Source: Escherichia phage vB_EcoM_WFL6982. From it: DNA of 64,000 nt. A program made the position numbers and the translations under genes. A model generated the notes under the pieces. That model saw nothing but the letters and a program-made list of their open reading frames with translations. It ran no database searches and was not told the DNA's origin. The stretch lies in sequence record MK373774.1, one strand, 5' to 3'. Shown one piece after another: positions 2,180-46,002 of this stretch. Each line of letters begins with the position of its first letter. Position 1 is the first letter of the stretch.

Positions 2180-3751
2180 ATGAAATTTAATATCTTAAGT
2201 TTGTTTGCTCCATGGGCAAAAATGGACGAACGTGATTACAAAGACCAAGAAAAAGAAAATTTAGAATCTATCACCGCACCAAAATTAGACGACGGCGCTA
2301 AAGAATACGAAGTATCTGAAAATGAAGCACAGCAAACATATAATGCTATGTTTCAGAGAATGTTCGGTAGTCAAGAACCAGGGCTCAAATCAACCCGTGA
2401 ATTAATCGATACGTATCGAAATTTGATGACGAACTATGAAGTGGATAATGCAGTCTCTGAAATAGTTTCCGATGCTATTGTATATGAAGATGATACAGAA
2501 GTCGTTTCTATAAATTTAGACAACACAAAATTTAGTCCAAATATAAAATCAATGATGTTGGATGAATTTAACGAAGTGTTGAATCATTTATCTTTCCAAC
2601 GTAAAGGTTCAGACCATTTTAGGCGTTGGTATGTAGATTCTCGAATTTTCTTCCATAAAATTATTGACCCTAAACGCCCTAAAGAAGGTATTAAAGAGCT
2701 TCGTCGTTTAGACCCACGTCAAGTTCAATATGTCCGTGAAGTTATTACAACCACTGAAGCCGGTGTTAAAATAGTCAAGGGTTATAAAGAATATTTCATT
2801 TACGACACATCACACGAATCTTATGCTTGTGATGGTCGCATATATGAAGCTGGCACAAAAATAAAAATCCCTAAAGCCGCGATTGTTTATGCCCATTCTG
2901 GTTTAGTTGATTGTTGTGGTAAAAATATCATCGGTTATTTGCATCGGGCTATTAAGCCAGCGAACCAATTAAAACTTCTTGAAGATGCTGTCGTAATTTA
3001 TCGTATTACTCGTGCTCCCGATCGTCGTGTATGGTACGTTGATACAGGTAATATGCCTTCAAGAAAAGCAGCAGAACATATGCAACATGTTATGAATACG
3101 ATGAAAAACCGTATTGCATACGATGCTACTACAGGCAAGATTAAAAACCAGCAGCATATTATGTCGATGACCGAAGATTATTGGTTACAACGACGTGATG
3201 GTAAAGCAGTAACAGAAGTTGACACATTACCAGGTGCAGATAATACTGGAAATATGGAAGATGTACGTTGGTTCCGTAATGCGCTTTATATGGCTTTACG
3301 TATTCCTATTACCCGTATTCCAAGTGACCAAGGTGGTATACAGTTTGATGCTGGTACTTCTATTACACGAGATGAATTATCATTTGGTAAATTTATTCGT
3401 GAGCTGCAACATAAATTTGAAGAGATATTCCTAGACCCGCTTAAAACTAATTTAATTCTTAAAGGAATTATTACAGAAGATGAGTGGAATGATGAAATAA
3501 ATAATATTAAGATAAAATTTCATCGGGATAGTTATTTCTCGGAATTAAAGGATGCTGAGATTCTGGAGCGTCGCATTAATATGCTTCAGATGGCCGAACC
3601 ATTTATTGGTAAATATATTTCTCACAGAACAGCTATGAAAGATATTCTTCAGATGTCTGACGAGGAAATTGAACAAGAGGCTAAGCAAATTGAAGAAGAG
3701 TCGAAAGAGGCTCGTTTCCAAGACCCCGACCAAGAACAAGAGGATTTTTAA
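2180..3751 (+). CDS. 20: Portal vertex protein gp20
   Basis: 523 aa; T4 gp20-like size and position upstream of 67/68/21/22/23. Confidence 0.92.
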
Positions 3752-3987
3752 TGGACGATTTAATTCAAGCTATTAAATCAAACGACCTCGTTGCTACTCG
3801 AAAGTTTTTTGAAAGTGCAATGGCAGAAAAAACGGTTCGTTTGATTGAAGCACGCAAAGCAGAAATCGCTTCTCAATTTTTGATTGAAGGCGAAGAACCT
3901 GAAGAAGAAAAGAAAGCTAAAGCTTCGGAAGACGACGCTGATGAAGGCGATGACGACGAAGACGAAGATGATGAGGACGATGAATAA
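3751..3987 (+). CDS. 67: Prohead core protein gp67 (acidic C-terminus)
   Basis: 78 aa with poly-Asp/Glu tail, start overlaps gene 20 stop; T4 synteny. Confidence 0.8.
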
Positions 3988-4412
3988 TGTATCTTATCCC
4001 TGAATCTTATGAATTGGTACTCGAAAATGTCGAAGCACTTATTCCTGAAGCACAGGGCCGAATCGATGCATTGTCTTCTGCTCTCGATATTGACGATATA
4101 AATACTATTATCGAGAACATGCTTGAAACTGAAACGGATTTAGCTGTTGCAATGGCTTCCATTATTAATGAAGAACAGTTAAATGAGTTTATCGTTAAAC
4201 ATGTTTCTTCTCGTGGTGAAGTCACCCGCACTAAAGACCGTAAAACTCGTGAACGTACCGCGTTCCAAACCACCGGTCTTTCTAAAGCAAAACGTAGACA
4301 AATCGCTCGTAAGGTCGTTAAAGCTAAAAAAGCTAACCCTTCAGGCCAAGTTAAAGGCTTGCGTAAGCGTAAAAAAGCTCTTAAACGTCGTAAAGCATTA
4401 GGATTAAGCTAA
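3987..4412 (+). CDS. 68: Prohead core protein gp68
   Basis: 141 aa, basic C-terminus, coupled between 67 and 21. Confidence 0.8.
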
Positions 4413-5899: not shown

Positions 5900-5916
5900 T
5901 TTAAAGGTTAACACAA

Positions 5917-7485
5917 ATGACTACTATCAAAACTAAAGCTCAGCTCGTAGACAAATGGAAAGAACTGCTGGAAGGTGAAGGCCTGCCGGAAATCGCTAAT
6001 AGCAAGCAGGCTATTATCGCTAAAATCTTCGAAAACCAGGAAAAAGATTTCGAAGTATCCCCTGAATATAAAGACGAGAAAATCGCTCAGGCATTTGGTT
6101 CTTTCTTGACCGAAGCTGAAATTGGCGGTGACCACGGTTATAACGCTCAGAACATCGCAGCAGGTCAAACCTCTGGTGCAGTAACCCAAATTGGGCCGGC
6201 AGTTATGGGTATGGTTCGTCGTGCTATTCCTAATCTGATCGCTTTTGATATTTGTGGTGTTCAGCCTATGAACAGCCCTACCGGTCAGGTATTTGCTCTC
6301 CGTGCAGTATATGGTAAAGACCCTATCGCTGCCGGCGCTAAAGAAGCTTTCCATCCGATGTATGCTCCAGATGCGATGTTCTCTGGTCAGGGTGCTGCTA
6401 AGAAATTCCCAGCTCTGGCTGCTAGCACACAAACCACAGTAGGTGATATCTATACTCACTTCTTCCAAGAAACTGGTACTGTATATCTGCAAGCTTCTGC
6501 TGTCGTAACACTTGATTCTGGTGCAACTGATGCAGCTAAATTAGATGCAGAAGTTAAGAAACAAATGGAAGCTGGTGCACTGGTAGAAATCGCTGAAGGT
6601 ATGGCTACTTCTATCGCTGAACTCCAGGAAGGTTTCAACGGTTCTACCGATAACCCATGGAATGAAATGGGCTTCCGTATCGATAAACAAGTTATCGAAG
6701 CTAAATCTCGCCAGCTGAAAGCTGCTTACTCTATCGAATTAGCACAAGACCTCCGTGCAGTACACGGTATGGATGCTGATGCTGAATTGAGTGGTATTCT
6801 GGCTACAGAAATTATGCTAGAAATCAACCGTGAAGTTGTTGATTGGATTAACTACTCTGCACAGGTTGGTAAATCTGGTATGACCCTGACTCCGGGTTCT
6901 AAAGCTGGTGTATTTGACTTCCAGGACCCGATTGATATCCGTGGTGCTCGTTGGGCCGGTGAAAGCTTTAAATCTCTGTTGTTCCAGATTGATAAAGAAG
7001 CAGTTGAAATTGCTCGTCAAACCGGTCGCGGTGAAGGTAACTTCATTATCGCTTCCCGTAACGTAGTTAACGTACTGGCTTCAGTTGATACTGGTATTTC
7101 TTACGCTGCACAGGGTCTGGCTTCTGGTTTTAATACCGACACTACTAAGTCTGTATTTGCCGGTGTCCTTGGTGGTAAATACCGCGTATACATCGACCAG
7201 TATGCTAAACAGGATTACTTCACCGTTGGTTACAAAGGCGCTAACGAAATGGATGCAGGTATCTACTATGCTCCTTACGTTGCACTTACCCCGCTGCGTG
7301 GTTCCGATCCTAAGAACTTCCAGCCGGTAATGGGCTTTAAAACTCGTTACGGTATCGGTGTTAACCCGTTTGCTGAAAGTTCCCTGCAGGCTCCAGGTGC
7401 TCGCATCCAGTCCGGTATGCCGTCTATCCTGAACAGCCTTGGTAAGAACGCTTACTTTAGACGCGTCTACGTTAAAGGAATTTAA
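5917..7485 (+). CDS. 23: Major capsid protein gp23
   Basis: 522 aa; T4 gp23 size; followed by strong hairpin terminator. Confidence 0.95.
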   Translation: MTTIKTKAQLVDKWKELLEGEGLPEIANSKQAIIAKIFENQEKDFEVSPEYKDEKIAQAFGSFLTEAEIGGDHGYNAQNIAAGQTSGAVTQIGPAVMGMVRRAIPNLIAFDICGVQPMNSPTGQVFALRAVYGKDPIAAGAKEAFHPMYAPDAMFSGQGAAKKFPALAASTQTTVGDIYTHFFQETGTVYLQASAVVTLDSGATDAAKLDAEVKKQMEAGALVEIAEGMATSIAELQEGFNGSTDNPWNEMGFRIDKQVIEAKSRQLKAAYSIELAQDLRAVHGMDADAELSGILATEIMLEINREVVDWINYSAQVGKSGMTLTPGSKAGVFDFQDPIDIRGARWAGESFKSLLFQIDKEAVEIARQTGRGEGNFIIASRNVVNVLASVDTGISYAAQGLASGFNTDTTKSVFAGVLGGKYRVYIDQYAKQDYFTVGYKGANEMDAGIYYAPYVALTPLRGSDPKNFQPVMGFKTRYGIGVNPFAESSLQAPGARIQSGMPSILNSLGKNAYFRRVYVKGI

Positions 7486-38331: not shown

Positions 38332-38740
38332 ACTTTTTCTTATGTTGGATATTCCAAGGCGGGTTGAACTTTTTGATAAAAAGTGGTTCTTCAAGGTCCA
38401 TTGTTGCGATGGTCATTGAACCAAGTTCGTTGGTGACTGAAAGGTCAAAACATTGGCGGGCCCAGAATTCAACCTTTTTGCCTTGCATTAAGGCATCCAA
38501 AATCATAAGTGATTTTCTTGAATCTGAAGTCTGGTCTTTTCGATTTATGGCTGTTCGATAATAGTTAATGCGTTTCTTTAAATTCTTGGTTTTACCAATA
38601 TACACGAGTTCGTCATCTATAGCAATAGCATATATGACATTTTTCTTATTAGGGACATCAACTGTTTTAATTGTTGCATCTTCTAATAGCTCCAATTCTG
38701 TATATTTAATAAAGGAATATTCGGCGGCGATATCTTTCAT
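38330..38740 (-). CDS. denA: Endonuclease II (GIY-YIG family)
   Basis: 136 aa; VIYAIAIDDELVYIGKTKNLKKRINYYR GIY-YIG-type motif. Confidence 0.85.
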   Translation of the reverse strand: MKDIAAEYSFIKYTELELLEDATIKTVDVPNKKNVIYAIAIDDELVYIGKTKNLKKRINYYRTAINRKDQTSDSRKSLMILDALMQGKKVEFWARQCFDLSVTNELGSMTIATMDLEEPLFIKKFNPPWNIQHKKK

Positions 38741-38748
38741 AATAAAGT

Positions 38749-38762
38749 GGGACCGAAGTCCC
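38749..38762 (-). terminator. Hairpin gggacc-gaa-gtccc after nrdB
   Basis: Stem-loop just downstream of nrdB exon 2 stop. Confidence 0.5.
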
Positions 38763-38766
38763 GTCC

Positions 38767-39269
38767 TTAGAAATATTTTTTGTATGAATTGATTACATTT
38801 TGGTCTACATCATTATCAATTTGTGCGACAAGATAAGAACTGATTTCAACTTCCTGAGGAGCTGCTTGAACTAAATCAGAGTTCAGATATTCACGAATCC
38901 AAGGATACGGATGCTTGGTCGGAGCATCCGTAATTGGACATGGCAAACCACACTGTTTCATACGAGACACAGTCAAGTAATCAACAAAAGCACACATACT
39001 CTGCGTATTGATACCTGGACATGTACCATCTTTAAAGAGGTGTGCAGCCCATTCCTTCTCTTGACTATTTACTTCCATAAAAATGTCAACTGCTTCTTGT
39101 TCACATTCTTTAGCAATTTGAACCCACTCATCACCGTCAGTACCAGATTGAAGTTGACGGATAATGTACTGAGTACCCTTGAGATGGAGTTGTTCGTCAC
39201 GAGCAATGAACTTCATAATCTTTGCATTGCCTTCCATAATTTCCATATTCTTGTGGAAGTTAAAGGTAC
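38767..39269 (-). CDS. nrdB: Ribonucleotide reductase small subunit NrdB, exon 2
   Basis: Frame continues TFNFHKNMEIMEGNAKI...; joined to exon 1 gives FYVSFA-C-TFNFHKN, colinear with E. coli R2 FYVSFACSFAFAERELMEG. Confidence 0.85.
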
Positions 39270-40360
39270 CGTTATGTTCGATTGAGCTCGCTAATTCTCA
39301 ACCCGTTCTCTTATGAACTGCTACATATTACTATGCAGACCAGACTATATCACAATCCCAGAGGGATTCTCCCCATTTCGAGTCGCTTGACCCTACGTCC
39401 GAAGACTAGTCGTTGAACCTTGCTTTGCAATTGTCGCCGTGCCATCGTTTATATGTTGATGGTGATAAATCTTTCTTATCACAATATGGACAATTCAATT
39501 GAATTCTATTTGGATTTAATTTACATCTGTCATTATGTTTTAGATAAAATCCAGGACCTTTACCAATGTGACCACAAAAATCACACGTGATTTCTTTTTG
39601 TGCAGGATGGGTCCCGTTCTTAACCATTTCTAATGTTTTTGCTGATGTTCTTTTCTTATGGTCTTCTGATAAGAAATGATGTGAACCGTCATTTACCCGT
39701 TTTGATTGAGTTTCTGACTGCATTTTACCACCGCAAAATACATGAGTACCTTCTTTTATAGCTGCAATATTGCGTTCTTTAACTTTTGCAATATGCTCAG
39801 CTTGTTGAAAATTATGTATACCTAATGCAACTCTATTTAAATTAGATTTACGCTGTATTTCACCGTCTAAAAGATGAAATGTACCATTTTCTATCTTAGA
39901 TTTAATAGAGGCAATATTTTTAGCTCGTACTTCAGGGATATTAAAAATCTGGATTTCTCTAGATTTTGCGGCTTTAGAAGCTAATTCAGAAATTTCTTCA
40001 GGAGAATATTTCATTCTAAGCTTTATAGCATGACAAGCCTGGTAATCTTTTTGAGCTAAATGTATATCATAATGTTCCTGTATAGAAAGGCACATCAAAT
40101 TATCTAAATCATTATTTTCACGGTTACCGTCTTTATGATGGATTTCATATGTTCTTCCATCAGAATCTTTAGGTATAGGTCCGTTAGCATCTATCCAAAT
40201 TTTTCTATAGTTCAATTGTGCATCCTCTTAAAAGTATAATCATATTTATATTATACTAATTAAAGGTGCAAGCAAAACCTTGGCTGCTAGTTTTCCTATA
40301 AAGGACTTTCCAGCAATTAAAGGAGTTTTCGATAAACGTTACCGTTTAAAGGCGCATTTT
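39270..40360 (-). mobile_element. Group I self-splicing intron in nrdB (about 1091 nt) carrying HNH endonuclease ORF
   Basis: Interrupts nrdB; 3' core cgtagggtcaagcgactcgaaa and 3' end gaacataacG resemble T4 td intron P7-P9 and terminal G; 5' exon ends in U. Confidence 0.8.
39406..40215 (-). CDS. I-TevIII: Intron-encoded HNH homing endonuclease (I-TevIII-like, full length)
   Basis: 269 aa; HNH motif EIHHKDGNRENNDLDNLMCLSIQEH; C-terminal Cys-rich zinc-finger-like region; inside nrdB intron. Confidence 0.85.
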   Translation of the reverse strand: MNYRKIWIDANGPIPKDSDGRTYEIHHKDGNRENNDLDNLMCLSIQEHYDIHLAQKDYQACHAIKLRMKYSPEEISELASKAAKSREIQIFNIPEVRAKNIASIKSKIENGTFHLLDGEIQRKSNLNRVALGIHNFQQAEHIAKVKERNIAAIKEGTHVFCGGKMQSETQSKRVNDGSHHFLSEDHKKRTSAKTLEMVKNGTHPAQKEITCDFCGHIGKGPGFYLKHNDRCKLNPNRIQLNCPYCDKKDLSPSTYKRWHGDNCKARFND

Positions 40361-41036
40361 ACGCAAAAGATACATAAAAACGAATAGCTTCTAAGGCATT
40401 AATAACGTGCAAACAGAGGTAAAGAGATTTCATTAGCTCACGCTTCCAATATGTCTCATGCTCAATAGCATCTTCAATAACGTCTTCGTCTGCATTAATT
40501 TCTTTTTGGTATTCGATATCGGCTTTAGCGTTTTCCCAATAACGAGTTTTAACCAGAACATCATCGTAATATTTACCTATTGATTCAGCTCGTTTCATGA
40601 TTGCTTCGTCTAATACAATCTCATCAAATACCTTAGATGGGTCTGTATAAAGATTTCGCATAATATGAGTGTACGAACGAGAGTGAATAGTTTCACTGAA
40701 TGTCCATGTTGCAACCCATGTATCTAATGAAGGGTCGGAAATCAGTGCCATAAGTACCGCAGATGGGGCCCTGCCTTGGATAGAATCTAATAATGATTGA
40801 TACTTAAGATTGTTTGTAAAGATGTCCTGTTGGAACTGAGGAAGCTTATTGAACTGCGCAGAGTCCAACATCAAGTTTACCTCTTCTGGGCGCCAGAAAA
40901 ATGACAATTGCTTTTCAATAAGTTCTTCAAAAACTTTATGTCGCTGAATATCATAACGTGCGAGGCCAAGACCAGAACCAAAGAACATTGGTTCATTCAA
41001 AACATCGACTTGTTGTGTGTTAAAAACTGTACTCAT
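40361..41036 (-). CDS. nrdB: Ribonucleotide reductase small subunit NrdB, exon 1
   Basis: 225 aa segment ending ...EAIRFYVSFA; di-iron R2 family N-terminal half. Confidence 0.88.
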
Positions 41037-41091
41037 TATATTTTCTCACTTAGTTATTAACTCATCCATGAGTAAATTATAATCAAAAGTC

Positions 41092-43356
41092 TTAAAGCTT
41101 ACAAGCAGAACAATCTTCAGCTTTAGGTGTTTCTAATTCATAGTCATCTGTACCTGACCCATCACGAGTGTTATGATAGTAGAGGTTTTTTCCGCCAAAG
41201 TACCAGAAGTAAAGCAGATCGTCAAGCATTACCGACATTGGCACTTTACCTTTCTCAAATACTGCAGGGTCATAGTAAGTATTAGCAGAAGCAGATTGGC
41301 ACACCCATTTCAACATGATAGCAACTTGGGTCAAATAAGGTTTATTACCTTTCTTAGCAAGTTTCCACGCGTAGTCGTAAAGACTCATGTTATGTTCTAT
41401 ATTAGGAACAACCTGTCGGAAGTTGCCTTCTTTAGATTCTTTAATACTTACTGGACCGCGTGGGGGCTCAATCCCGTTTGTAGAGTTCGATACTTGACTG
41501 CTTGACTCACAAGGCATGAGTGCAGACAACGTTGAGTTACGAATTCCATGTTCTTTGAGTTCAGCTCGAAGTTCTTCCCAATCACATACGTAGTTCGGGG
41601 CTGCGATTTGGTCAATCTTTTTATTGTACCAGTCGATAGGTAATTCGCCTCTAGACCATTTAGTGTCTGAATAATACTCGCAACATCCTTTTTCTTTGGC
41701 GAGTTTGATTGAAGCTTTGATAAGGCCATATTGCAATCTCTCAAACAATTCATGAGTCAAATCGTTAGCGTCTTCATATGAAGCGAAGTTAGAAGCTAAC
41801 CATGCAGCATAGTTCGTAACACCAACACCAAGATTACGACGCTTTTTGGCTTTTAAAGCTTCTGGAACCGGATAATCTTGATAGTCTAACAGGTTATCAA
41901 GTGCACGTACTTGTACTTCAGCAAGTTCATTAATTTTATCTTGGTCTTGCCAATCAAATTTATCTAACACGAATGCAGATAACGTGCATAAACCAATTTC
42001 AGCATCAGGACCATTCACATCATTAGTTGGAATAGCGATTTCACAACATAAGTTACTCTGACGAATTGGAGCTTTTTCACGAATAAACGGAGTGTAGTTA
42101 TTCGTGTTATCAACAAACTGTGGATAAATTCGAGCAGTACCAGAGCGTTCAGTCATGAACAATTCAAAGAGTTCTAGTGCTTTGATTCTTTTCTTTCTGA
42201 TTGTTGGGTCTTTTTCAGCTTTCTCATAAAGCTCACGGAATTTATCTTGATCTTCAAAGAACGAGTAGTATAGTTCGCCTGACATTTCGTGAGGGCTAAA
42301 TAAAGTAATATAATCATTTTTACCAAGGCGTTCCATCATAAGGTCATTAATCTGAATTCCGTAGTCCATATGTCGAATACGGTTTTCATCCACGCCTTTG
42401 TTATTTTTCAGAACTAATAGGTTCTCTACTTCTAAGTGCCACATCGGATAATACGCTGTAGCAGCACCACCACGAATACCACCTTGAGAACAAGATTTTA
42501 CTGCAGTTTGGAAATGTTTCCAGAATGGAATAACACCCGTATGTCGAACTTCACCCATACCGATCTTAGAACCTTCTGCACGAAGCATACCAACGTTGAT
42601 ACCAATACCAGCTCGTTTAGAAATATATTCAATAATTGATGCTGAAGTTTTGTTAATAGATTTTAACGAATCACCGGCTTCAATAACTACACAACTAGAG
42701 AACTGGCGAGTTGGAGTACGAGCACCTGCCATAATTGGGGTTGGCAATGAAACTTGATGAGTAGAAACGGCATTATAAAAACGAATAATATGTTTCAAAC
42801 GGTCATGAGTTTCGTCTTGGTGTAAGGCCATGCCAATAGCCATGATAGCAAACTGGGGAGTTTCATAAATCTTCCCAGTTGTTTTATCTTTAACTAGATA
42901 TTTTTCTTTAAGCTGCATAGCACCAGCATAAGTCAGGTCAAAGTCTCGTTCATGTTTAATCTGTGAATCGAGATAAATGATTTCTTCTGCTGAATATTGA
43001 GACAACAGCTCAGGGTCATATTTGCCTTCATTAACACAATAAGAAATATGGTCGATAAAAGCAGGCGGTTCAAACTGCCCATATACATCTTTACGAAGTG
43101 CAAACATTAGCCCTTTGGCGGCGACATACTGATAATCAGGTTCTTCGACAGAAATCGAGTTAGCTGCAACTTTAATACAAATCTTCTGGATATCTTTGGT
43201 GCTCATCCCGTCGACAAGATGGGTCTTAATTTCTTCATACAATTCATATGGGTCAATTTGTGTTCCTTCACATTGCCAAGTTAAGACTTGAATAATTTTC
43301 TGTGCATCAAAATTTTGGGATACACCTGAATTTTTCACTACTTTAAAATTATACAT
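41092..43356 (-). CDS. nrdA: Ribonucleotide reductase large subunit NrdA
   Basis: 754 aa; class Ia RNR; C-terminal CSACKL. Confidence 0.95.
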   Translation of the reverse strand: MYNFKVVKNSGVSQNFDAQKIIQVLTWQCEGTQIDPYELYEEIKTHLVDGMSTKDIQKICIKVAANSISVEEPDYQYVAAKGLMFALRKDVYGQFEPPAFIDHISYCVNEGKYDPELLSQYSAEEIIYLDSQIKHERDFDLTYAGAMQLKEKYLVKDKTTGKIYETPQFAIMAIGMALHQDETHDRLKHIIRFYNAVSTHQVSLPTPIMAGARTPTRQFSSCVVIEAGDSLKSINKTSASIIEYISKRAGIGINVGMLRAEGSKIGMGEVRHTGVIPFWKHFQTAVKSCSQGGIRGGAATAYYPMWHLEVENLLVLKNNKGVDENRIRHMDYGIQINDLMMERLGKNDYITLFSPHEMSGELYYSFFEDQDKFRELYEKAEKDPTIRKKRIKALELFELFMTERSGTARIYPQFVDNTNNYTPFIREKAPIRQSNLCCEIAIPTNDVNGPDAEIGLCTLSAFVLDKFDWQDQDKINELAEVQVRALDNLLDYQDYPVPEALKAKKRRNLGVGVTNYAAWLASNFASYEDANDLTHELFERLQYGLIKASIKLAKEKGCCEYYSDTKWSRGELPIDWYNKKIDQIAAPNYVCDWEELRAELKEHGIRNSTLSALMPCESSSQVSNSTNGIEPPRGPVSIKESKEGNFRQVVPNIEHNMSLYDYAWKLAKKGNKPYLTQVAIMLKWVCQSASANTYYDPAVFEKGKVPMSVMLDDLLYFWYFGGKNLYYHNTRDGSGTDDYELETPKAEDCSACKL

Positions 43357-43996
43357 AATAATTCCATGTTGGATAATTTGATGATTTTAGCCGGCGTCTA
43401 ACCGTTTGGGTGCTCATAGATAAAACTATTGACGCTTCATTTAATGTATCATATATTACGTCGTTTATAATTACTTTCTTTGCAAATGGATTCTTGGCTC
43501 CTATCATAGCATTAGAAATAGCTTGCTTAGTTGATTCTTTTAATGGGACTCCTTTAGAAATTTTTGTTTTAATTTTTATATTGTATTGTCCGCGTTTTTT
43601 ACCTAATAAAGAATTTCGTATCTTTTCTTTAGTCTCTTCAGATTTAACATGTCCTAGTTTGGAACGAGATATTTTATCTTTTGTTTTTTGGTCTAATTTT
43701 CGCCCTTTAAGCAAATCAACCATTTTTGCTCTAGCCCATCCAAATTCTTTATTATTTCTAGAACTCATTAAATTAACCGCGGTTGCTAAACCTAAATTGT
43801 TCGGATATATTTTTAATAAAAGAAGATGAGCCAAATAATGTTCTGAATATGTTAATTTAACTAGATTGTATGACTCATTGGTGCCACCTAAACATTTTGG
43901 GATTATATGATGCCATTCACCATCTATATCTTCAAAATTTCTTTCTTTATTTACCAAGTTTTTATATATTTTTAAATAATCCATAGTATAATCCAC
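43349..43996 (-). CDS. Free-standing HNH homing endonuclease with NUMOD3-like repeats (Mob-like)
   Basis: 215 aa; HNH motif GEWHHIIPKCLGG...N...EH; repeated KISRSKLGH / KIRNSLLGKKRG / ISNAMIGAKNP; stop overlaps nrdA start by 8 nt. Confidence 0.8.
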   Translation of the reverse strand: MDYTMDYLKIYKNLVNKERNFEDIDGEWHHIIPKCLGGTNESYNLVKLTYSEHYLAHLLLLKIYPNNLGLATAVNLMSSRNNKEFGWARAKMVDLLKGRKLDQKTKDKISRSKLGHVKSEETKEKIRNSLLGKKRGQYNIKIKTKISKGVPLKESTKQAISNAMIGAKNPFAKKVIINDVIYDTLNEASIVLSMSTQTVRRRLKSSNYPTWNYYV

Positions 43997-44011
43997 TTTG
44001 TAGTATCAACG

Positions 44012-44040
44012 GGATAGTATTTATCCCGTTAATTTATTAT
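44012..44040. repeat. Perfect 9-bp inverted repeat aacgggata-gtatt-tatcccgtt
   Basis: In intergenic gap just upstream of HNH endonuclease start. Confidence 0.5.
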
Positions 44041-44059
44041 ACACTTTTAAACTGAAGCG

Positions 44060-44314
44060 TTAATTATCCACAGCAATAATTTCTTCATATTCTTTAGGTG
44101 TCAAGACTGTGATATTGAAATAAACCAACGGTTCTTTTTCTATACCGAATCCACCACAAAATTCACGATATTCATAAATTCGTTCATGTGAATAGCAAAT
44201 GAATCGTTCACCTTTAACTGTGATTTCACTATTCGGTGAAGGGATATCTAGTTCGGTAGGATTTTTCATTTCAAAAATTGTGGTGCCATATGAATTAATA
44301 AAACGTAAAATCAT
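44060..44314 (-). CDS. Hypothetical protein (nrdA.1 position)
   Basis: 84 aa ORF coupled to td stop. Confidence 0.5.
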   Translation of the reverse strand: MILRFINSYGTTIFEMKNPTELDIPSPNSEITVKGERFICYSHERIYEYREFCGGFGIEKEPLVYFNITVLTPKEYEEIIAVDN

Positions 44315-45175
44315 TTATACCGCCATTTTAGCTTTGATAGTTGGATGAGATTCATAATTTTTAAGAACGAAATCAGAATGTGTCATAGTTCCAGTAACCC
44401 AGTCCATTTGGATTTTTGTAGGCCAATTCTCAAAATTACTAGGCCAATTAATTTCAAGAGAACATAACTCTTTAGGTTCACGACGAAGAACTTCTTTGCA
44501 TTGTTCTATATGATTGCTGTAGATATGCGTGTTGCCGCCTGAGAACACTAAATCACCTGGGATAAGATTACACATCTTAGCCACAATATGCGTCAAGGCA
44601 GCGTACGAGGCAATGTTGAATGGCAATCCCAAGAAAACATCTACACTGCGTTGATACCATTGTAAATCAAGATGCCCATTACGCACATTAAATTGATAGA
44701 ACATATGACAAGGAGGAAGAGCCATTTGGTCAATTTCGGCCGGGTTCCATGCAGAAACTATTTGACGACGATCATTAGGAAGAGCTTTAATACGGTCGAT
44801 AGTTTTGTCCAATTGGTCTACACCACCAAAATCACGCCATTGCTTACCATAAATAGGACCAAGTTCGCCGCTATGATACCCAAGGTCTTTTGCCTGATTT
44901 TCATAGTTGTCGTCCCAAATAGTTTTACCTTGAATAAGACTACCATGAGTACGAATACGCAAATCATTAACATTGGTAGAACCAGACATGAACCACAGTA
45001 ACTCGGCAATACAAGCTTTCCACGCTAATTTCTTAGTTGTTACCGCAGGGAATCCTTTAGTCAGATCCCAACGTAATTTAGTTCCGAACAGGGCAATTGT
45101 TCCTGTGCCTGTACGGTCGTCTGTTTCGTAGCCATTTTCTAGGATATCATTAATCAGGTATTGGTATTGTTTCAT
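44315..45175 (-). CDS. td: Thymidylate synthase (uninterrupted, no intron)
   Basis: 286 aa contiguous ORF with TS active-site motif ALPPCHMFYQF. Confidence 0.95.
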   Translation of the reverse strand: MKQYQYLINDILENGYETDDRTGTGTIALFGTKLRWDLTKGFPAVTTKKLAWKACIAELLWFMSGSTNVNDLRIRTHGSLIQGKTIWDDNYENQAKDLGYHSGELGPIYGKQWRDFGGVDQLDKTIDRIKALPNDRRQIVSAWNPAEIDQMALPPCHMFYQFNVRNGHLDLQWYQRSVDVFLGLPFNIASYAALTHIVAKMCNLIPGDLVFSGGNTHIYSNHIEQCKEVLRREPKELCSLEINWPSNFENWPTKIQMDWVTGTMTHSDFVLKNYESHPTIKAKMAV

Positions 45176-45759
45176 TTATATACGCTCTCAGTAATTTCGG
45201 TGAGTTCATCGATTCTGTAGTAATGAGATTCTACCATAGAACGTTGAAGCATAATATCTTGGACGAAATCTTTATCAAGTTGAACATCGGAATTAACACG
45301 ACATTTCTTAATGATTTTAGTCATCACGATTTCATCGGCATAAGGCAGTGCTTGTTTTAATAGAGCAGGACCGCCGATAACAGATACATTAACATGTTCA
45401 GTAGAAAGTTTAAACGGTACATCAGTTGCAGGGCTAAACAGGTTAATTTCACCACCTGTTACCAAGGTAATAAATTCAGATTGGGTGATATAGAACCGTG
45501 CAAGTTCATCAGTTTTAGTCCTAGGCAGTTTTCTGGCCATATCAGTGACAACCACATGAGTACGATCTGGGAGTAGACGAGGTAATGATGCAAAAGTCTT
45601 AGCACCCATAACCATTACAGTGTTTTTAGTGCGAGCAACAAAGTTACTCATATCTTGTTTGATATGCTTCCATGGAAGTCCATCACCTAATCCAAAAGCA
45701 TATTCCAGTTTATCATCAACTGTTTTAGATGGTGCGCATGCGAATACTAATTTAAGCAT
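45172..45759 (-). CDS. frd: Dihydrofolate reductase
   Basis: 195 aa; T4 Frd-like (LEYAFGLGDGLPW...), coupled to td. Confidence 0.9.
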   Translation of the reverse strand: MLKLVFACAPSKTVDDKLEYAFGLGDGLPWKHIKQDMSNFVARTKNTVMVMGAKTFASLPRLLPDRTHVVVTDMARKLPRTKTDELARFYITQSEFITLVTGGEINLFSPATDVPFKLSTEHVNVSVIGGPALLKQALPYADEIVMTKIIKKCRVNSDVQLDKDFVQDIMLQRSMVESHYYRIDELTEITESVYK

Positions 45760-46002
45760 TTTTAAGTCCTTTAATAACTTTTTGGATTTGTGATTTAGAC
45801 GAAACTAGTTCTGTCTGAATTTCCAAACCATCGGTTTGGTCAAATGTTGTAACACAAACACGAGGTTTTGTTGTGTATCATCCAGACAAATCAAATGCAT
45901 CACCAATGAATTCGGCCAAATCCGGATGGTCTAAATTAACTGAAGTATAAACTTCATATCCGACATCAGCGCCTTGAGAGTATTCAACAACAACATTCAT
46001 AA

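Follow-up and report, generated by a model that had tools for sequence, protein, structure and literature searches.

The td-nrdA-nrdB cluster of T4-like phages is a hotspot for homing endonuclease genes (HEGs), with different HEGs found at alternative sites. Free-standing examples other than T4 mobE include Hef and SegH of T4-related phages and the MobE of phage Aeh1, which lies inside nrdA. These occupy positions other than the one described here, and we know of no free-standing HEG between nrdA.2 and nrdA in other such systems. T4 mobE is promoterless and co-transcribed with nrdA, and it carries the middle promoter of the downstream gene, nrdB. In T2, which is mobE-less, the enzyme nicks the 5′ region of this downstream gene, and its mobility has been shown experimentally (PMC2790892). 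Two intron-encoded enzymes are also relevant to the present gene, namely I-HmuI of the Bacillus phage SPO1, an HNH nicking enzyme (PDB 1u3e), and I-TevI of the T4 td intron, a GIY-YIG enzyme.

We analysed a 64,000-nt stretch of the genome of Escherichia phage vB_EcoM_WFL6982 (MK373774.1; hereafter the window), an RB69-like Mosigvirus referred to below as WFK (vB_EcoM_WFK). The features of the locus are collected in Table 1. In our assessment the locus probably holds a free-standing Mob-type HEG. The gene is borne on a foreign cassette of 681 nt, which some RB69-like (Mosigvirus) phages, a minority, have in their nrdA leader. The HEG resembles T4 mobE in its family (PHROG 655, the HNH and NUMOD3 regions being 33% identical), in its location in the same operon and on the same strand, and in its overlap with the start and stop codons of its neighbours. 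Both also have signals of a downstream ribonucleotide reductase (RNR) gene aboard, which are the nrdB middle promoter in mobE and, in the HEG, the start codon of nrdA with its ribosome-binding site. However, mobE is found between nrdA and nrdB whereas the HEG is upstream of nrdA, the MobE tail is Cys-rich whereas that of the HEG is an I-TevI-type helix-turn-helix (HTH), and the HEG cassette additionally swaps the first codons of its downstream gene. Furthermore, nicking and mobility are experimental for MobE, whereas those proposed here for the HEG follow from analogy.

Table 1 Features of the HEG locus, in window coordinates
Feature	Position	Strand	Description	Evidence
nrdA	41092..43356	-	RNR large subunit, 754 aa; downstream gene	Pfam ATP-cone and RNR large-subunit domains
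Whole cassette	43327..44007	-	681 nt; 23-nt leader, HEG, ribosome-binding site and codons 1-10 of nrdA	8 HEG+ versus 7 HEG- loci
Cassette-borne first 10 nrdA codons	43327..43356	-	MYNFKVVKNS; replaces MQVTKSS of RB69-type phages	
Homing endonuclease gene (HEG)	43349..43984	-	211 aa from ATG	ORF, PHROG 655 and MobE similarity
I-TevI-type C-terminal HTH	43358..43507	-	Putative DNA-binding domain, residues 160-209	Pfam PF20987 and Foldseek
NUMOD3-like helical repeats	43499..43705	-	Residues 94-111, 112-128 and 146-162, with a degenerate repeat between	Pfam, pattern and model
HNH (beta-beta-alpha-metal) catalytic core	43826..43918	-	E23-H53, EWHHIIPKCLGGTNESYNLVKLTYSEHYLAH	Alignment and structure model
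Host hairpin, left cassette boundary	44005..44033	-	9 perfect bp, 44008..44016 / 44022..44030, 5-nt loop; 12 bp when a G-U pair is included	
Promoter-like site	44036..44063	-	TTAACG-16-TATAAT, with MotA-box-like GCTTCA 11 nt before the -10 hexamer (TATAAT, 44041..44036)	Sequence scan
nrdA.2	44060..44314	-	84 aa, DUF5496; upstream neighbour	Pfam PF17600 (E = 2.4e-12), PHROG 2458 and RB69 annotation

Gene boundaries, position and domain architecture

An earlier sequence-only reading of the window had proposed a 215-aa endonuclease gene. The corresponding ORF (43349..43996, minus strand), which includes GEWHHIIPKCLGG, does exist and gives 215 aa when counted from GTG at 43996, but ATG at 43984 is most likely the true start, giving a product of 211 aa. 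This is because the GTG has no Shine-Dalgarno sequence (duplex, +0.6 kcal/mol), whereas the ATG has a weak one (-3.1 kcal/mol), yields the N-terminus MxYxKIY typical of the family, and is the start annotated in GenBank (636-nt CDS) in 7/7 annotated HEG-carrying (HEG+) records fetched. The gene had also been placed between td and nrdA. It adjoins nrdA, but nrdA.2 intervenes on the td side and separates it from td, such that the HEG lies between nrdA.2 and nrdA, with both flanking genes intact and uninterrupted. As had been claimed, the insertion site differs from that of mobE, which is present between nrdA and nrdB in the T4 genome.

The free-standing status of the gene was confirmed by its intergenic position and by an Rfam search (E <= 0.1) over 38500..46000, in which the single match was the group I intron in nrdB and none occurred at the HEG locus. 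Most GenBank records label the gene 'homing endonuclease'. In WFK it is misnamed 'group I intron endonuclease', probably because the C-terminal part is common to the HEG and I-TevI: TIGR01453 matched the protein at 31.8 bits (cut-off 56.05) and only over profile positions 63-212, corresponding to the DNA-binding part. Pfam gave no match to a GIY-YIG domain in the HEG protein. The gene was thus already known as a homing endonuclease in the databases and the nrdA.2-nrdA site is the addition made here.

The protein matched PHROG 655, 'homing endonuclease' (E = 5.8e-46), and its residues 1-167 aligned with T4 MobE by BLASTP (33% identity, 178 columns, E = 7e-27), corroborating the kinship with MobE that had been suggested. 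Across an alignment of 54 homologues, residues H25, H26, P29, G34, N40, E48, H49 and H53 were invariant, including the catalytic His/Asn/His expected of an HNH endonuclease, and this conservation extended to MobE. In the structure model the HNH core was formed by two strands (23-26 and 41-44) and a helix (46-59), with pLDDT above 90. No Pfam HNH model scored above threshold on the HEG protein, the score for HNH_5 being 14.4 bits against a cut-off of 27.5.

Three NUMOD3 repeats had been read from the sequence. Pfam NUMOD3 scored 25.4 bits (cut-off 20.4) over two stretches, and the repeats at residues 112-128 and 146-162 matched singly (E = 0.006 and 0.005, respectively), whereas the repeat at 94-111 (GRKLDQKTKDKISRSKLG) was recognised by eye from the pattern TKxKISxSxLG and had no separate Pfam support. 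The modelled helices in this region covered residues 99-110, 116-128, 133-143 and 150-161. The HTH-like tail was borne out by the Pfam model for the I-TevI DNA-binding HTH (25.3 bits, slightly under the cut-off of 27) and by Foldseek, which matched the C-terminal 50-60 residues to 1i3j_A with a probability of 1.00 (TM 0.55, 31% identity). The structure of the I-TevI domain on its operator (1t2t) was also among the structural matches. When the whole model was searched, TPR-like helical repeats dominated the matches because of the NUMOD3 helices; the only informative matches were I-HmuI, which was weak, and the DNA-binding domain of I-TevI. Sequence similarity to I-HmuI was below detection when the HEG protein was compared with PDB sequences using phmmer.

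Judged from its sequence and modelled fold, the HEG product is a Mob-type HNH homing endonuclease, comprising an N-terminal HNH domain, NUMOD3 linkers and an I-TevI-like HTH, and it presumably has nuclease activity. It differs from I-HmuI in being free-standing rather than intron-encoded, and from I-TevI in being an HNH rather than a GIY-YIG enzyme and in having no intron.

The cassette, the nrdA start and the transcription signals

Comparison of the junction in 8 HEG+ and 7 HEG-less (HEG-) loci revealed a replacement with the same edges throughout, in which the cassette takes the place of 56 nt (TGGAGTAATG...AAGAGCAGT) comprising the nrdA leader, its Shine-Dalgarno sequence and codons 1-7. 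The GC content of the cassette (28.8%) was lower than that of the window (37.8%). At the recoded nrdA start, 3/5 alignable codons keep their amino acid whilst 9/15 bases are changed, and the nrdA Shine-Dalgarno sequence is weaker in HEG+ phages (-3.3 kcal/mol) than in HEG- phages (-6.1 kcal/mol). With codons 1-10 of nrdA and its ribosome-binding site inside the cassette, and with the nrdA ATG overlapping the HEG stop, loss of the HEG by simple deletion would be predicted to disable nrdA translation.

The reported 8-nt overlap between the HEG stop and the nrdA start was verified, the TAA (43351..43349) and the ATG (43356..43354) having the string ATGTATAA in common. Translational coupling through this overlap is plausible, and nrdA translation is probably coupled in part to that of the HEG, but this is not special to the HEG; in T4 and AV117, nrdA.1 occupies the same place and overlaps the nrdA start by 10 nt, and the AV117-type allele shares nrdA codons 1-7 with RB69. 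T4 nrdA.1 was considered as a possible HEG remnant and rejected, since BLASTP detected no similarity and it is an unrelated ORF. An RNA structure hiding the nrdA start (inverted repeat 43346-43379) was likewise rejected (z = -0.13, like shuffled sequence). The presence of the nrdA ribosome-binding site and codons on the cassette is more telling than the overlap.

Upstream of the HEG, the sequence-only reading had noted a perfect 9-bp inverted repeat. The repeat is indeed perfect, but is found at the position given in Table 1 and not at 44012..44040. The stability of this hairpin (-14.6 kcal/mol, z = -5.2) is far above chance and the hairpin was identical in 15/15 phages compared, HEG+ and HEG- alike. 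Since HEG-less phages have the very same hairpin, and since it is situated beyond the segment that is replaced, it was rejected as a part of the element. It was also rejected as an intrinsic terminator of the coding strand because the minus strand has no U-tract; the hairpin is terminator-like on the antisense plus strand only.

The only promoter-like and MotA-like sites on the coding strand were those at 44063..44036. They are kept in HEG- phages, with the hairpin just downstream, and on the basis of these motifs probably constitute the nrdA promoter, which would now drive both the HEG and nrdA. Early, middle and late promoters have been characterised upstream of nrdA in T4 (PMC2790892). The late motif TATAAATA was not found within or near the locus, and no internal promoter or intrinsic terminator like those of mobE was predicted on the HEG coding strand, the latter being a further difference from mobE. 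As the cassette has no promoter of its own, transcription most likely starts from the conserved promoter-like site, at a point predicted ~7 nt beyond the TATAAT, and includes the 5′ hairpin, with the HEG as first cistron on the message for nrdA. The HEG would then resemble mobE in requiring transcription of the nrdA region, and its translation probably starts from its weak ribosome-binding site.

The HEG directly follows the hairpin and the promoter-like site of nrdA, a location also consistent with co-option by the phage, either for the exclusion of HEG-less competitors through nrdA cutting or for regulation of the nrdA promoter or leader through the HTH. The similarity of the C-terminal domain to the DNA-binding domain of I-TevI, with 1t2t among its structural matches, is in keeping with such regulation, and I-TevI represses its own expression via its HTH domain. 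A regulatory role was left open for MobE by its authors (PMC2790892). However, the presumed target had no operator-like repeat in the vicinity of the promoter, and the invariant HNH residues point to a nuclease and not to a mere DNA binder. Exclusion and homing would, moreover, be two outcomes of one cleavage and hence not truly distinct. We regard co-option as very improbable.

Distribution and spread of the cassette

The HEG was found in 11/175 related phage records, every time at the nrdA.2-nrdA site, and was precisely absent from the others. The nearest relative outside these 11 records was no more than ~44% identical, and the 90%-identity cluster of the HEG protein held 10 member sequences among ~15 billion proteins. 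This sporadic occurrence, as opposed to a gene found at the same position in most relatives, agrees with the mobility that had been proposed. In the phage collection, the NrdA N-terminus MYNFKVVKNS was restricted to the 11 HEG+ records, and a degenerate pattern of MYNFKVVKNSG had no match in viral or metagenome contigs. With respect to a donor lineage, no close HEG relative was found in IMG/VR, and the JGI metagenomes contained one distant fragment only. Homologues adjacent to nrdA in P479 and STML-198, which belong to other genera, were rejected as same-site cases because both are at the mobE position. Related Mosigviruses also have a HEG within nrdA (AV111), a HEG at the mobE position (mogra), and HEGs in the td and nrdB introns.

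For 6/8 HEG+ phages, the nearest nrdA relative was a HEG- phage; WFK and the HEG- phage mogra had 1 difference in 1300 nt. Nucleotide diversity of the cassette (pi, 0.007) was 4-9 times lower than in the 400 nt adjoining it in those genomes (0.025-0.065). All HEG copies (8/8) were intact 211-aa ORFs, and their pN/pS of 0.25, from only 11 coding substitutions, indicates purifying selection on the HEG protein. The overall pattern fits a cassette that is foreign and has recently spread, although a young allele subject to the frequent recombination that is ordinary in T-even phages could also come to have mosaic flanks and little diversity in the cassette, without endonuclease-driven homing.

In another reading, the HEG is intact in sequence yet no longer mobile, moves only by general T-even recombination, and is kept since deletion would take away the start codon of nrdA and its ribosome-binding site. 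The nrdA initiation region and 10 codons within the cassette would select against its loss. Co-conversion of hundreds of bp is common in T4 homing; no co-conversion tract was visible beside the cassette, and HEG+ phages differed from one another within ~40-60 nt of either edge. If homing were efficient, the gene might also be expected to be commoner than its 11/175 records and its single small cluster among 15 billion proteins suggest, and the defunct I-TevIII of T4 exemplifies a dead HEG that persists and is even carried along. Set against this, every copy is full length and has all the invariant catalytic residues, the pN/pS (again, from 11 substitutions) is that of purifying selection, and the very low diversity of the cassette relative to its diverse flanks fits recent spread. 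On balance, a stranded HEG is an unlikely account of the locus.

Proposed homing into nrdA and its meaning

We favour a mobile HEG, for which nrdA is the probable target gene in HEG-less phages. By analogy with MobE, the enzyme would, during mixed infection, nick or cut the 5′ region of nrdA in a relative that lacks the HEG, and repair by recombination from the HEG+ genome would copy the cassette in. The target may lie in or across the 56 nt replaced by the cassette, as this is the only sequence consistently different between HEG+ and HEG- phages; no fixed or nearly fixed difference was found in the ~3 kb taken per side. This argument is suggestive and not conclusive, given that MobE nicks ~120 nt inside its downstream gene and that its self-immunity polymorphisms are not strictly fixed (PMC2790892).

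More tentatively, the recognition site might be the nrdA translation-initiation region itself, with the recoded copy (a new Shine-Dalgarno sequence and 10 codons) providing self-protection; we see this as possible rather than likely. If true, each homing event would rewrite the NrdA N-terminus, which forms the first strand of the ATP-cone, together with its translational control. The HEG would then be undeletable, and homing would directly make protein- and expression-level variation in ribonucleotide reductase.

The HEG leaves the understanding of such elements unchanged, as it is an ordinary selfish gene of the MobE type. Since WFK and mogra are near-identical around the site and differ in HEG content, they represent a ready donor/recipient pair. 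The nrdA.2-nrdA junction is one more occupied site in the td-nrdA-nrdB hotspot of T4-like phages, and provides a clean natural case of a free-standing HEG cassette on which the gene downstream has its first codons and its ribosome-binding site, echoing MobE and the nrdB promoter.

Locus and distribution of the endonuclease gene

A 1.4-kb query around the homing endonuclease gene upstream of nrdA (HEG) was 100% identical to Escherichia phage vB_EcoM_WFK (MK373775; Mosigvirus, RB69-like), hereafter WFK. Every gene of the locus lies on the minus strand, in the order gene 32, frd, td, nrdA.2, HEG, nrdA and a split nrdB. The sequence-only reading had placed the ORF, its GEWHHIIPKCLGG string and an 8-nt overlap of its stop with the nrdA start (ATGTATAA) correctly; the upstream neighbour, said to be td, is nrdA.2.

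Features at the HEG locus, in window coordinates unless a compared locus is named
Feature	Coordinates	Strand	Remark
frd	45172..45759	-	gene upstream of td
td	44315..45175	-	intronless in the window
nrdA.2	44060..44314	-	DUF5496
HEG ORF	43349..43996	-	between nrdA.2 and nrdA
nrdA	41092..43356	-	downstream of HEG
nrdB	38767..41036	-	interrupted by group I intron
I-TevIII-like ORF	39406..40215		269 aa, HNH, intact; in nrdB intron
Promoter-like site	44063..44036		TTAACG-16-TATAAT; MotA-box-like GCTTCA 11 nt upstream of -10 hexamer
td of L003, L004, L006, L008	about 2210..4086		intron with 738-nt homing endonuclease gene

HEG occurred in 11 of 175 related phage records, invariably between nrdA.2 and nrdA, the remaining records matching the flanks only; one further contig examined carried it in the same context. 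By tblastn the 11 copies are at least 97.7% identical, and the next relatives reach at most ~44% and mostly lie elsewhere in their genomes. The 90%-identity cluster of the protein holds 10 members among ~15 billion proteins, and a search for a donor lineage of the cassette found none. As had been proposed, the site is unlike that of mobE, the position at which both other nrdA-adjacent homologues inspected, in other genera, were found. Most GenBank records already name HEG a homing endonuclease, and literature searches, with Mosigvirus papers judged by titles and abstracts only, turned up none that apparently treats this element.

A third allele at this junction (AV117, L018 742..1513; T4, L017 2203..2746) comprises an extra 73-aa ORF and a homologue of T4 nrdA.1; in both T4 and AV117 the stop of nrdA.1 runs 10 nt into the nrdA start at that position. 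The junction is thus a general plasticity point, more than a HEG site, and the overlap is not peculiar to HEG. T4 nrdA.1 was rejected as a relative of HEG, being unrelated.

The cluster holds other such genes. The I-TevIII of T4 itself is truncated; unlike it, the I-TevIII-like ORF of the window looks full length, and an exact T4 late-promoter motif (TATAAATA, 40243..40250) lies just upstream. Four other carriers of HEG (a20, NRG-P0074, AV115 and AV109; L003, L004, L006 and L008) have a td intron, so that the three endonuclease sites assort independently among close relatives. In AV111 (L015 4430..7589) nrdA forms two ORFs with a 711-nt homing endonuclease gene (5900..6610) between them, resembling the 'genes-in-pieces' arrangement reportedly found in Aeromonas phage Aeh1.

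A Mob-type nuclease with an I-TevI-type tail

The protein matched PHROG 655 'homing endonuclease' (E = 6e-46) and was 33% identical to T4 MobE over the HNH and NUMOD3 region (E = 7e-27). Residues H25, H26, P29, G34, N40, E48, H49 and H53 were invariant in 54 aligned homologues drawn from a 5.8-billion-protein search, and in the AlphaFold model (mean pLDDT 82.9) they map to a strand-strand-helix unit, the beta-beta-alpha-metal fold, with four linker helices and then a small C-terminal domain after it. Helical-repeat proteins overwhelmed the fold searches made with the whole model. Two of the three NUMOD3 repeats previously claimed were each supported alone by Pfam, and the third only by the pattern TKxKISxSxLG. 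Since MobE has a different, Cys-rich C-terminus, the protein joins a Mob-type nuclease and linker to a DNA-binding tail of the I-TevI type.

The label 'group I intron endonuclease' on the WFK protein in GenBank probably stems from a sub-threshold match of this tail to TIGR01453 (31.8 bits, cut-off 56). No GIY-YIG domain was found in the protein and no intron at the HEG locus, the sole Rfam match at E <= 0.1 in 38500..46000 being the nrdB group I intron (RF00028, partial, 39321..39561; E = 7.6e-6, 33.9 bits with the gathering score at 50). In every respect that sequence can test, HEG conforms to the Mob-type free-standing HNH homing endonucleases, and it does not conform to the GIY-YIG intron endonucleases.

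The 215-aa frame read earlier is sound, its start less so. No Shine-Dalgarno precedes the GTG at 43996 (duplex +0.6 kcal/mol), against a weak one (-3.1 kcal/mol) for the ATG at 43984, which also yields the MxYxKIY N-terminus typical of the family and is the annotated start in 7/7 annotated HEG-carrying records fetched. A length of 211 aa is therefore the most likely.

Replacement and expression of the nrdA 5' end

Comparison of eight loci with HEG (HEG+) and seven without (HEG-) revealed a replacement, not a simple insertion. In HEG- phages the hairpin, an inverted repeat, is followed by 56 nt (TGGAGTAATGTCTATCAACCTATACTGAGGAATAT ATG CAA GTA ACT AAG AGC AGT) comprising the leader of nrdA, its GAGGA Shine-Dalgarno and its codons 1-7. 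A 681-nt cassette (44007..43327) takes their place in HEG+ phages; it consists of a 23-nt leader, HEG and a new start for nrdA, 10 codons long, and the NrdA N-terminus thereby changes from MQVTKSS-GVSQ to MYNFKVVKNS-GVSQ. The five alignable nrdA codons differ at 9/15 bases and keep 3/5 residues, and identity jumps to 100% from GGTGTATCCC on. The MYNFKVVKNS N-terminus was confined to the 11 HEG+ records. GC content is 28.8% in the cassette, 37.8% in the window and 38.9% in nrdA.

The inverted repeat of the sequence-only reading is real, though it lies at 44008..44030 and not 44012..44040 (9 perfect bp, 5-nt loop, -14.6 kcal/mol, z = -5.2). Neither hairpin nor promoter-like site differs between HEG+ and HEG- phages. 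The hairpin resembles an intrinsic terminator on the plus (antisense) strand only, where AATTTATTAT follows it; on the coding strand it would form the extreme 5' end of any transcript driven by the TATAAT at 44041..44036. It may serve as an mRNA 5' stabiliser, an antisense terminator or a recombination boundary. Because no other promoter-like site, TATAAATA late motif or terminator was predicted for the cassette's coding strand, HEG would be promoterless and would open the nrdA message as its first cistron. In HEG+ phages the last codons of HEG contain the Shine-Dalgarno and start codon of nrdA. This Shine-Dalgarno is weaker than that of HEG- phages (-3.3 versus -6.1 kcal/mol), so it is plausible that nrdA initiation depends partly on termination-reinitiation at ATGTATAA. 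RNA structure at the nrdA start was not significant.

Possible mobility and predicted target

The flanks of the cassette are mosaic. For 6/8 HEG+ phages, the phage nearest in the first 1300 nt of nrdA lacks HEG; over this stretch WFK differs once from mogra and at least 12 times from every other HEG+ phage. Nucleotide diversity (pi) among HEG+ phages is 0.007 in the cassette and 0.02-0.065 in the adjacent 400 nt per side. All eight copies are intact (12 variable sites, six synonymous; pN/pS 0.25). No fixed or nearly fixed HEG+/HEG- differences were found in the ~3 kb taken on each side, and no co-conversion tract was visible beside the cassette. These patterns fit a cassette that is young, selectively maintained and moved by recombination into diverged backgrounds; alone, they do not separate endonuclease-driven homing from the high general recombination of T-even phages. 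WFK and mogra are near-isogenic neighbours that differ at three endonuclease sites: mogra lacks HEG and the nrdB intron and has an endonuclease gene at the mobE position between nrdA and nrdB (L010 6684..7382), where WFK has none (41037..41091).

A homing enzyme has to leave the genome that encodes it uncut, and carriers and non-carriers differ consistently only in the replaced 56 nt; the site recognised or cleaved is therefore predicted to lie within, or to span, the leader and first codons of nrdA in HEG- phages. A caution comes from MobE, for which strict fixation of immunity polymorphisms is not required (PMC2790892). T4 mobE has no promoter and is co-transcribed with nrdA, MobE nicks the nrdB 5' region in the mobE-less T2, its mobility requires the HNH motif, and mobE contains the middle promoter of nrdB, hence selection against deletion of mobE (PMC2790892). 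The same logic would apply to HEG, with a stronger anchor against deletion than in mobE, since the gene itself includes the Shine-Dalgarno and start codon of nrdA. The noteworthy feature is that the cassette bears a recoded 5' end and the ribosome-binding site of nrdA.
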